DNA of 38,987 nucleotides, taken from positions 1-38,987 of the forward strand of contig JALVIB010000017.1 of the NCBI GenBank assembly GCA_027028725.1, read 5' to 3'. Numbering within the stretch: the stretch's first letter is position 1; each line of letters opens with the position of its first letter. Origin of the DNA: Candidatus Altimarinota bacterium. GTDB taxonomy: Bacteria > Patescibacteriota > Gracilibacteria > UBA4473. The notes below the pieces were generated by a model. That model saw nothing but the letters and a program-made list of their open reading frames with translations. It was not told the origin of the DNA and did no database searches. Made by a program: the position numbers and the translations under genes. Shown here piece after piece: positions 31,530-33,446 of this stretch.

Positions 31530-33446
31530 TTACTTATCTTCATCCGCATTTACTTCTTCAAATTCGGCTTCTTTGATTTCTTCTTCACCAGAATCTTCGG
31601 CTTTTTTCTCTCCTTCGGCAGCTTTTGGATCAGCACCTAGTTCGTGCATTTTTTGCCCAAGTGCCATGAGTTCTTTTTCCAAAGCTTCTTTTTCTGCTTT
31701 CAAATCTTCTTTGGAAGCATCTTCTTTTTTCAAAATTTCGCGGGATTTTTCTAAGCGATCTTCTACCGCTTTAATCAAATCTTTTAGCCCATCTTTTTTC
31801 AAATCAGTGGCTTCTTTGGCAGTTTTTTCTGCTTGATAAATTAACGAATCAAGATGGTTTTGCGCTTCCACTTTTTCTTTGCGTTCTTTGTCTTTTTCCG
31901 CGTTTTCTTCGGCTTCTTTTTGCATTCGTTCAATTTCTTCTTCACTCAATCCACTTGATCCTTCAATGCGAATATCTTGAACTTTTCCGGTCGCTTTATC
32001 TTTGGCGGTCACTTTCAGAATTCCGTTGGCATCAATATCAAAAGTCACTTCAATTTGCGGAACTCCACGCGGAGCTGGAGCAATTCCGTCCAAAATAAAT
32101 TGCCCGAGAGATTTATTATCAGCCGCCATTTCGCGTTCTCCTTGAAGAACATGGATTTGCACGCTTGGCTGATTATCCGCATAAGTTGAGAAAACTTGTG
32201 ATTTAGTAGTCGGGATTGTTGTGTTTCGCTCAATCATTGGTGTCCGAATTCCTCCAGCAGTTTCAATTCCTAAAGTTAGCGGAGTCACATCTAGAAGTAG
32301 CACATCTTGGACATCTCCTTGCAAAACTCCTCCTTGAATTGCCGCTCCGAGCGCCACAACTTCGTCAGGGTTTTGGGAAGTATTCACTTTTTTCCCGAAA
32401 AATTCTTCAACCATTTTTTGCACCAACGGCATTCGAGTCATTCCTCCCACCATAATAATCTCATTTACATCAGATTTTTTAAGCCCAGCATCTTTCAAAA
32501 CTTTTTCACAAGGTTTCAAAGACTTCTTCACCAAATCAGTTGCCAGAGTTTCAAATTTTGCCCGCGAAATTTTTTCGTGTAAATGGATTGGCGCTCCATC
32601 TTTAACGGTCAAATACATCAAGTTCACTTCATACTCCATAGTTGAAGACAATTCTTTTTTAGCTTTTTCAGCTTCTTCTTTAATTCGCTGCATCGCCATC
32701 GGATCTTTGCGCACATCAACACCATTTTCCTTATTAAATTTCTCAACTAGGTAATCGATAATGACATTATCAAAGTCATCTCCACCCAAGTGAGTGTCTC
32801 CATTTGTCGCCAAAACTTCAAAAGTTCCGTCGTGGATTTCGAGCGCGGAAACATCAAATGTTCCTCCACCAAGATCATAAACAATAACTTTTTCTTCTTT
32901 ACCTTTTTTATCAATTCCGTAAGCCAGAGCCGCCGCAGTTGGCTCGTTGATAATTCTTTCAACTTCTAATCCCGCGATTTTTCCCGCATCACGAGTAGCT
33001 TTTCGTTGATCATCATTAAAATAAGCCGGCACAGTGATTACAGCTTTGGTCACTTTTTCACCAAGGTATTTTTCAGCATCAGCTTTGAGTTTCCCCAAAA
33101 CTTTCGCGGAAATTTCCGCTGGTTTAACCGGTTTTCCGTCGAAAACAATTTCAACGGAATCATTTTTTCCTTTTTTGAACTCAAACGGAACATTGTCCAT
33201 TTCTTTTTTTACTTCGTTCCATTTTCGTCCGATAAATCTTTTCGCGGAAAAAATAGTGTTTTTCGGATTAGTCAGAGCTTGGCGTTTAGCCGGAGTCCCG
33301 ACAAGTATTTGGTCGCCTTTTTTGGCAACAATTGAAGGAGTGGTTCGTCCGCCTTCCGCATTTGGGATAACGACGGCTTTTCCTCCTTCCATAACGGCCA
33401 CACAAGAATTTGTGGTACCGAGATCAATTCCAATTATTTTTGTCAT
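31530..33446 (-). CDS. dnaK: Chaperone DnaK (Hsp70)
   Basis: [27 protein letters not shown] and full-length Hsp70 collinearity. Confidence 0.97.

Follow-up and report, generated by a model that had tools for sequence, protein, structure and literature searches.

Two families of short DNA words are known to have multiplied in bacterial genomes without lengthening the genes that they occupy. The uptake signal sequences (USS) of the Pasteurellaceae and the DNA uptake sequences (DUS) of the Neisseriaceae join a GC-rich core to AT-rich flanks, are used equally on both strands, and occur in coding and non-coding DNA with enrichment in the latter. They enter genes by substitution with a reading-frame bias and inflate particular tripeptides (PMC2817400); they match fewer conserved residues and match them more weakly, vary in a dialect-like manner among close relatives, and accumulate even in genes whose nearest homologs belong to other phyla. 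HIP1 (GCGATCGC) and the other highly iterated palindromes of cyanobacteria exceed one copy per gene, are over-represented by orders of magnitude, are placed in open reading frames (ORFs) through codon choice, and are conserved above background (PMC5861425, PMC4390886). A word can also become more frequent through base substitution, at unchanged length, under the very-short-patch (VSP) repair bias of Dcm/Vsr in E. coli (CCWGG), a process acting on DNA. Here we describe an 18-base word in contig JALVIB010000017.1, a stretch of 38,987 bp (39.5% GC, 83% coding) that was analysed in its entirety and is called the window below. It shares all of the USS/DUS properties listed above as well as the HIP1 properties, and its source is a relative of Candidatus Peribacteria, which public runs place in a hydrothermal-vent metagenome; the host thus belongs to the Candidate Phyla Radiation (CPR)/Patescibacteria, unlike the proteobacterial hosts of USS and DUS. 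We conclude, with a probability of roughly 0.85, that this word is a lineage-specific, hyper-abundant sequence that spreads by base substitution at existing sites and not by the insertion of copies. The behaviour itself is already known from uptake sequences, as described by Findlay & Redfield in 2009 (PMC2817400), and from HIP1. Our literature search returned no description of this word, nor of any uptake sequence or comparable word in Patescibacteria, and the motif and the case of this lineage are therefore undescribed in the literature searched.

The core of the word, CCCGCGA/TCGCGGG, is present in 124 copies in the window (58 on the forward strand and 66 on the reverse), compared with 1.4 expected from base composition, an over-representation of ~90-fold for the 7-mer. 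The 10-mer TCCCGCGAAA occurs 88 times against an expectation of 0.04, or about 2000-fold, whereas Dcm/Vsr effects are few-fold and concern 4-5-mers. Core density is ~3.2 per kb, and the 18-base word recurs about every 300 bases. Alignment of all copies gives the 18-mer consensus AAAATCCCGCGAAATTTT, at whose boundaries the similarity among copies ends. Sites with 0, 1, 2, 3 and 4 mismatches to this consensus number 20, 16, 26, 29 and 41, a smooth continuum of partial matches for which a first-order Markov model trained on the window sequence predicts 0, 0, 0.07, 0.9 and 4.7. The word is a near-palindrome, AAAATYYCGCGRRATTTT, centred on CGCG and self-complementary at 14 of its 18 positions. The 162 18-mers that depart from the consensus at no more than four positions hardly vary in the central CGCG, and the asymmetric core CCCGCGA is the dominant form among them (97, versus 5 for TTCGCGA and 1 for CCCGCGG). 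At motif positions 6 and 7, C-to-T variants occur commonly, and the depletion of such variants that is typical of VSP repair was not seen.

Two other roles for the word were excluded. The plain motif has no significant fold (z = 0.46), and an Rfam search of the window returned two tRNAs and nothing else; the use of both strands, the lack of a fold and the lack of an Rfam match exclude an RNA role. The 58/66 split likewise lacks the strong strand skew expected of polar chromosome words such as Chi and the FtsK-orienting polar sequences (KOPS), which excludes a word of that kind.

A sequence-only reading of this DNA had proposed that the motif is fitted into highly conserved proteins by substitution and not by insertion. 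DnaK, UvrB, PurB and an aminotransferase, all encoded in the window (Table 1), were each aligned to 17-29 orthologs and their motif sites scored for indels against substitutions. Of the 13 core sites that the four proteins contain, not one falls on an insertion specific to the window. At two of them, on invariant residues, the fit is purely synonymous; the other 11 carry one to three replacements relative to the ortholog majority. In a codon alignment of 30 dnaK sequences (that of the window and 29 orthologs), no window-specific indel column was found anywhere, and a comparison with E. coli DnaK shows no gap at DnaK sites 1 and 2. The claim that DnaK acquired the motif without a change in length is thereby upheld, and the E. 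coli and window peptides quoted in its favour are correct. Site 1 is present as described and ungapped, although the interval given for it, 32553-32570, lies 3 nt from the actual one. Motif-free relatives read KITRAK there (ACN CGN), whereas the window and the motif-bearing ortholog from the genome CAZMOH (locus L082) have ATT TCG CGG, a T-to-S replacement accompanied by synonymous changes. At site 2, the I-A-G residues are invariant in 28 orthologs and the codons alone differ: ATC GCG GGN is found in the window and in L082 and in none of the motif-lacking orthologs. The site stands at its synonymous optimum (5 mismatches versus 7.6 expected), and the proposal that conserved DnaK residues are encoded toward the motif is borne out by synonymous changes only. 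A third DnaK site, a perfect match absent from the sites listed earlier, falls in the variable C-terminal lid, in columns that read xxPRELL or xAKKVL in relatives, again with no gap.

The remaining three proteins behave in the same manner. All four UvrB sites are gap-free in a comparison with 28 orthologs, including 14 retrieved Peribacteria-group relatives (71-78%), and the conserved peptide FPAKH is written CCC GCG AAA through codon choice. Three of the PurB cores are gap-free against 29 orthologs; the fourth (KISRET) is 4 residues from a spot at which the window protein runs 2 residues shorter than its homologs and is therefore not an insertion. The PurB segment EFPAKFAGATGNF (21083-21121), which had been cited as an instance of the same pattern, is indeed gap-free. 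Within it, the window has Ala in place of two residues, Gly201 (shared by 27 of 30 orthologs) and Asn204 (invariant across all 30), in each case toward the motif and with no change in length. At residues 203-206 (21099-21110) the orthologs have K(I/M/F)NGA and the window has KFAGA, and its AAA TTT GCG GGA is one synonymous change short of a second core. The motif-directed loss of Asn204 may come at a cost to the protein. Neither site in the aminotransferase is gapped relative to 17 orthologs at 62-66% identity. Two-residue insertions at both motif sites of this protein, suggested by the distant T. maritima structure 2gb3, were rejected because closer orthologs show divergence of variable loops.

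Codon usage across the window points in the same direction. With expectations drawn from the background codon usage of the window, peptides compatible with the core are written with it in 18 of 21 cases for P-A-x (1.1 expected) and 26 of 38 for [FLIV]-A-G (3.3 expected); the other two compatible classes use it in 19 of 47 (2.3 expected) and 17 of 42 cases (1.4 expected). A second test was confined to flank codons that do not touch the core, which avoids ascertainment on the core itself. These codons carry 253 mismatches to the consensus, for a synonymous minimum of 228 and a codon-usage expectation of 326±7, and a count this low did not arise in any of 2000 simulations. At 64 of the 87 coding sites, the DNA is at the synonymous optimum for its own peptide. 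Synonymous choice at motif sites thus deviates strongly from the background and toward the motif, in the direction that the sequence-only reading had anticipated. Four of the six reading frames are favoured (NFAGF, 26; KSREI, 19; KISRDF, 17; NPAKF, 17), and the other two are rare (KIPRNF and KFRGI, 4 each). The motif-encoded tripeptides are enriched 6-10 fold, with SRE found 22 times versus 2.2 in shuffles, FAG 24 versus 3.0, PAK 15 versus 2.7 and SRD 11 versus 1.3.

The distribution of copies follows constraint. Coding sequences hold 87 cores, 40 in the direction of the gene and 47 antisense, and the other 37 of the 124 are non-coding or sit at the edges of genes. Match quality is best in intergenic DNA and just past stop codons: 10 of the 20 perfect copies are intergenic or overlap gene ends, and in ~10 of the 31 genes a copy lies no more than 12 nt from the stop codon. 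In two convergent pairs, purB/spoU (21855-21872) and miaA/pilin (37946-37963), the 15-16 nt between the stop codons are essentially the word itself. DnaK and UvrB contain fewer copies, most of them weak (4-8 of 18 positions mismatched) with the exception of the perfect site in the DnaK lid, and the L28 gene contains none. Match quality is clearly lower at conserved sites; the difference in conservation of the core residues is small (0.71 versus 0.76, p = 0.2). The window therefore displays the traits by which USS and DUS are recognized, namely many copies on both strands in genic and intergenic DNA, accommodation in ORFs by substitution, frame bias, inflated tripeptides and a preference for poorly conserved residues, the last with the small core-residue difference just given.

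An exact search for the 18-mer in one genome per GTDB species found it in multiple copies only in two metagenome-assembled genomes (MAGs) labelled 'uncultured Candidatus Peribacteria', CAZMOH01 and CAZYIR01, and in two contigs binned as a Saprospiraceae MAG. The consensus in CAZMOH and CAZYIR is that of the window. The dnaK loci of 20 other Peribacteria/Gracilibacteria genomes, whose DnaK proteins share 70-83% amino-acid identity, have 0-0.1 cores per kb, compared with 1.5 at the CAZMOH dnaK locus. Because motif density is high here and near zero in those other genomes, the word is specific to one lineage. Viral contigs gave one single-copy match, which is at chance level, and a variant motif sought in locus L064 was not found, the locus showing CG-rich codon usage only. 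A synteny search in the flanks of relatives for motif-free orthologs yielded almost nothing, as gene order is not conserved.

Turnover of sites was followed by comparing window genes with orthologs from CAZMOH and CAZYIR, to which they are about 75% identical in nucleotide sequence. Twenty-five cores are shared, 17 are found in the window only and 5 in the relative only. At the nucleotide level, 20 sites are lineage-specific, two of which fall at gaps. Among the 18 without a gap, 11 have a counterpart in the other lineage that departs from the motif by 1-2 core bases; at 6 of the 18, that counterpart differs at 4-6 of the 7 core bases and at 6-10 of the 18 positions, for a background of about 4.5/18. 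Between carrier genomes, 21 of 33 cores are conserved (64%); the figure is 20% for all remaining 7-mers and 10.5% for GC-rich ones, and this excess over background indicates that the sites are maintained, whether by selection or by continuing drive.

Several further observations concern the carriers. The Saprospiraceae-labelled contig L063 (JALVEG01) matches the window at ~95% identity across miaA and neighbouring stretches, with a MiaA protein identity of 98.5%, and L015 from the same assembly has a single 66-bp match at 86%; together the two contigs contain 2.6 motifs per kb. Both probably stem from Peribacteria, their placement in a Bacteroidota MAG being a binning error. Loci of CAZYIR01 (L001, L003-L007, L016 and others) hold many copies of TTCCGCGAAA and TCCGCGAAA beside TCCCGCGAA, variants that may represent a dialect of the word. 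In Logan contigs of the source runs (window positions 20000-38987), contigs start and end at copies of the motif, and distant copies are connected by hundreds of spurious joints, so that the word fragments short-read assemblies. A few close relatives aside, the nearest homologs of PurB are found in Proteobacteria and Bacteroidota (about 50-55%) and those of the aminotransferase in Clostridia (about 66%), which suggests an old horizontal acquisition of both genes. That they carry the motif despite these foreign-phylum homologs fits its accumulation after transfer.

The substitution model is well supported and rests on the unchanged protein lengths, the near-optimal codons, the tripeptide enrichment, the continuum of partial matches, the restriction to one lineage and the conservation of sites. 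Under this model, a directional pressure on DNA would push any sequence toward the word, and purifying selection on proteins would set how far each site proceeds. Where residues are invariant, synonymous codons alone shift and the site halts at the core plus the best available flank, about 13/18. Where residues are tolerant, amino acids are replaced and the match rises to 15-18/18.

The leading candidate for the driver, to which we assign somewhat less than even odds, is a sequence-biased DNA uptake machinery acting together with homologous recombination, as in the molecular drive proposed for USS and DUS. The USS/DUS-type patterns all fit this candidate. Type IV pili are carried by CPR bacteria, and genes for a pilin-like protein and a prepilin peptidase lie in the window. 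The data are compatible with allelic replacement by homologous recombination, whereas the end of similarity at the 18-mer makes ectopic gene conversion from one copy to another unlikely. The sequence-only reading had attributed the copies to point substitution or gene conversion as in uptake sequences; the uptake-like substitution behaviour stands, and the conversion part, in its ectopic form, is unlikely. The motif evolves like an uptake sequence, but the pattern is also of the HIP1 type, so this likeness does not establish that it is one.

A number of results weigh against substitution under uptake bias. Known USS and DUS have densities 3-4 times below that of the word in the window. The inverted-pair terminator arrangement typical of DUS was not seen in the window, and even spacing is only weakly signalled (coefficient of variation 0.85 versus 0.99, p about 0.04). 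The tripeptide enrichment reported above is far greater than the roughly 2-fold seen for USS (PMC2817400), and given this excess and the density of the word, the pressure may be of a kind other than uptake bias. The six strongly divergent lineage-specific sites could reflect multi-base replacement rather than stepwise point changes. Finally, the ortholog alignments would miss an insertion that was exactly balanced by a neighbouring deletion.

Nearly as likely as uptake, though still tentative, is an explanation modelled on HIP1, in which abundance is kept by selection for a chromosome-level function (nucleoid organization, a methyltransferase or repair target, or an aid to recombination) and the word still enters genes by substitution. 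The density of more than one copy per gene and the ~90-fold over-representation of the 7-mer are in the HIP1 range, the motif is near-palindromic around CGCG, and the conservation of 64% of sites versus 20% is the kind of argument from which selection on HIP1 was concluded (PMC5861425). However, the HIP motifs are true palindromes, HIP1 being a perfect one of 8 nt, whereas the word has 18 nt and a dominant form that is asymmetric. The periodicity of HIP1 is 10-90 kb, and the window spans 39 kb.

It is improbable that new sites of the word arise as short multi-base patches without length change, for instance by very short tracts of conversion, or by templated repair, at a recognized sequence. 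The six divergent sites, at which most core bases differ from the ortholog, would suit such patches, but directional evolution in one lineage already predicts excess differences at sites that were ascertained by the motif. The smooth continuum of partial matches, the 11 sites that are 1-2 core bases from the other lineage and the lack of similarity beyond the 18-mer to support ectopic recombination argue further for base substitution.

Sequences related to the word do insert. A 21-nt hairpin, CACCGCCTTGCGGGGCACAGC, is present in three identical copies in the window (Table 1), each inside a motif core, in frame and adding 7 residues, and its excision restores the 18-mer. The sequence-only reading had contrasted the hairpins, which add residues, with the motif, which does not. 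This contrast is seen directly in RecO by comparison with its ortholog, and the hairpin has likely lengthened the N-terminus of UvrB in the same way. An unrelated 24-nt insert splits the same motif site in the aminotransferase of a relative (L305, about 1590-1620), and the centre of the motif looks like a target or hot spot for insertion. A second type of hairpin, CTCCCGCCTTGCGGGAG (5718-5734 and 9660-9676), has motif-like TCCCGC/GCGGGA arms and a CTT loop and folds as DNA at -8.1 kcal/mol (z = -3.1); it is found once in the N-terminus of AcrB and once just downstream of the DUF302 gene.

The behaviour of the 21-nt hairpin and the 24-nt insert would favour the view that the copies of the word are themselves small mobile insertions that add their own length, of the type of miniature inverted-repeat transposable elements (MITE) or repetitive extragenic palindromes (REP). 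Yet addition of its own length combined with a hairpin is a property of the separate 21-nt element and not of the plain motif, which has no significant fold. No gap is found at any of the 13 sites in conserved proteins or at 18 of the 20 lineage-specific sites, and two sites lie on invariant residues. The ortholog alignments refute the plain motif as a mobile insertion, and we give this explanation almost no weight. Equally negligible is the notion that the word is a by-product of peptide selection or general codon bias: SRE, FAG and PAK are frequent in the window, but the use of both strands and of four frames with unrelated peptides, the highest match quality in non-coding DNA, a background codon usage that predicts 10-20 times fewer cores at compatible peptides, and orthologs that keep the residues with other codons all contradict it.

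Substitution at existing sites thus remains the reading that we prefer. Beyond it, we consider possible, at odds well short of even, that this is the first uptake-type or otherwise driven word in the CPR and the densest and most proteome-distorting known, with strength enough to displace the otherwise invariant Asn204 of PurB, and that its CGCG centre is a hot spot for the 21- and 24-nt insertions, which would point to an enzyme that recognizes, and perhaps cuts, the word.

Pfam assigns names to 24 of the 31 ORFs in the window, including Pif1, CsoR, HlyD, AcrB, PurB, SpoU, L28 and UvrB, as well as PilD, HolA, DnaK, RecO, MiaA and the pilin-like protein. Their positions, where relevant, are collected in Table 1 with those of the motif sites, hairpin inserts and tRNAs.

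Table 1. Positions of genes, motif sites, hairpin inserts and tRNAs in the window
Feature	Position	Strand	Details
dnaK	31530-33446	-	638 aa; three motif sites; phmmer match to E. coli DnaK, E=5e-213
DnaK site 1	32556-32573	+ (antisense to gene)	13/18 match; coding AAA ATT TCG CGG GCA AAA = KISRAK
DnaK site 2	32966-32983	+	13/18 match; coding AAA ATC GCG GGA TTA = KIAGL
DnaK site 3	31732-31749	-	perfect 18/18; encodes EKSREIL, variable C-terminal lid
uvrB	24435-26462	+	18-mer starts 25041 (-), 25207 (+), 25231 (+), 25280 (+)
purB	20492-21856	+	454 aa; Pfam Lyase_1 + ASL_C; core starts 20669 (-), 21084 (+), 21342 (-), 21599 (-)
PurB EFPAKFAG	21084-21110	+	forward motif 15/18, then near-core TTT GCG GGA
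Aminotransferase	17413-18609	-	sites 17940-17957 (+, ENFAGIS), 18150-18167 (-, KIPAKKE)
Hairpin insert in recO	35831-35851	+	L082 (CAZMOH) ortholog has intact motif, with 21-nt gap exactly there
Hairpin insert, UvrB N-terminus	24465-24485	+	peptide ENP-HRLAGHS-AKLF; removal restores AAAATCCCGCGAAATTAT
Hairpin insert, SNase-domain gene	12987-13007	+	degenerate second copy at 12941-12971
Prepilin peptidase	26736-27641		
Pilin-like protein	37963-38586		
tRNA-Ser(GCT)	11777-11866	+	
tRNA-Arg(CCT)	36852-36925	-	

These results rule out a transposon-like origin of the word and leave, as with HIP1 or uptake sequences, either selection or a drive by substitution as the mechanism. They show that pressure acting on DNA is able to alter a small genome once in every 300 bases with protein lengths unchanged, the cost of the word being borne by codon choice and amino-acid identity. 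In practical terms, the word breaks short-read assemblies and yields misbinned contigs. Relatives with and without it constitute a natural system for measuring the load that a genomic word places on proteins. Should biased DNA uptake prove to be the driver, the word would be evidence of within-species genetic exchange in an uncultured CPR lineage.

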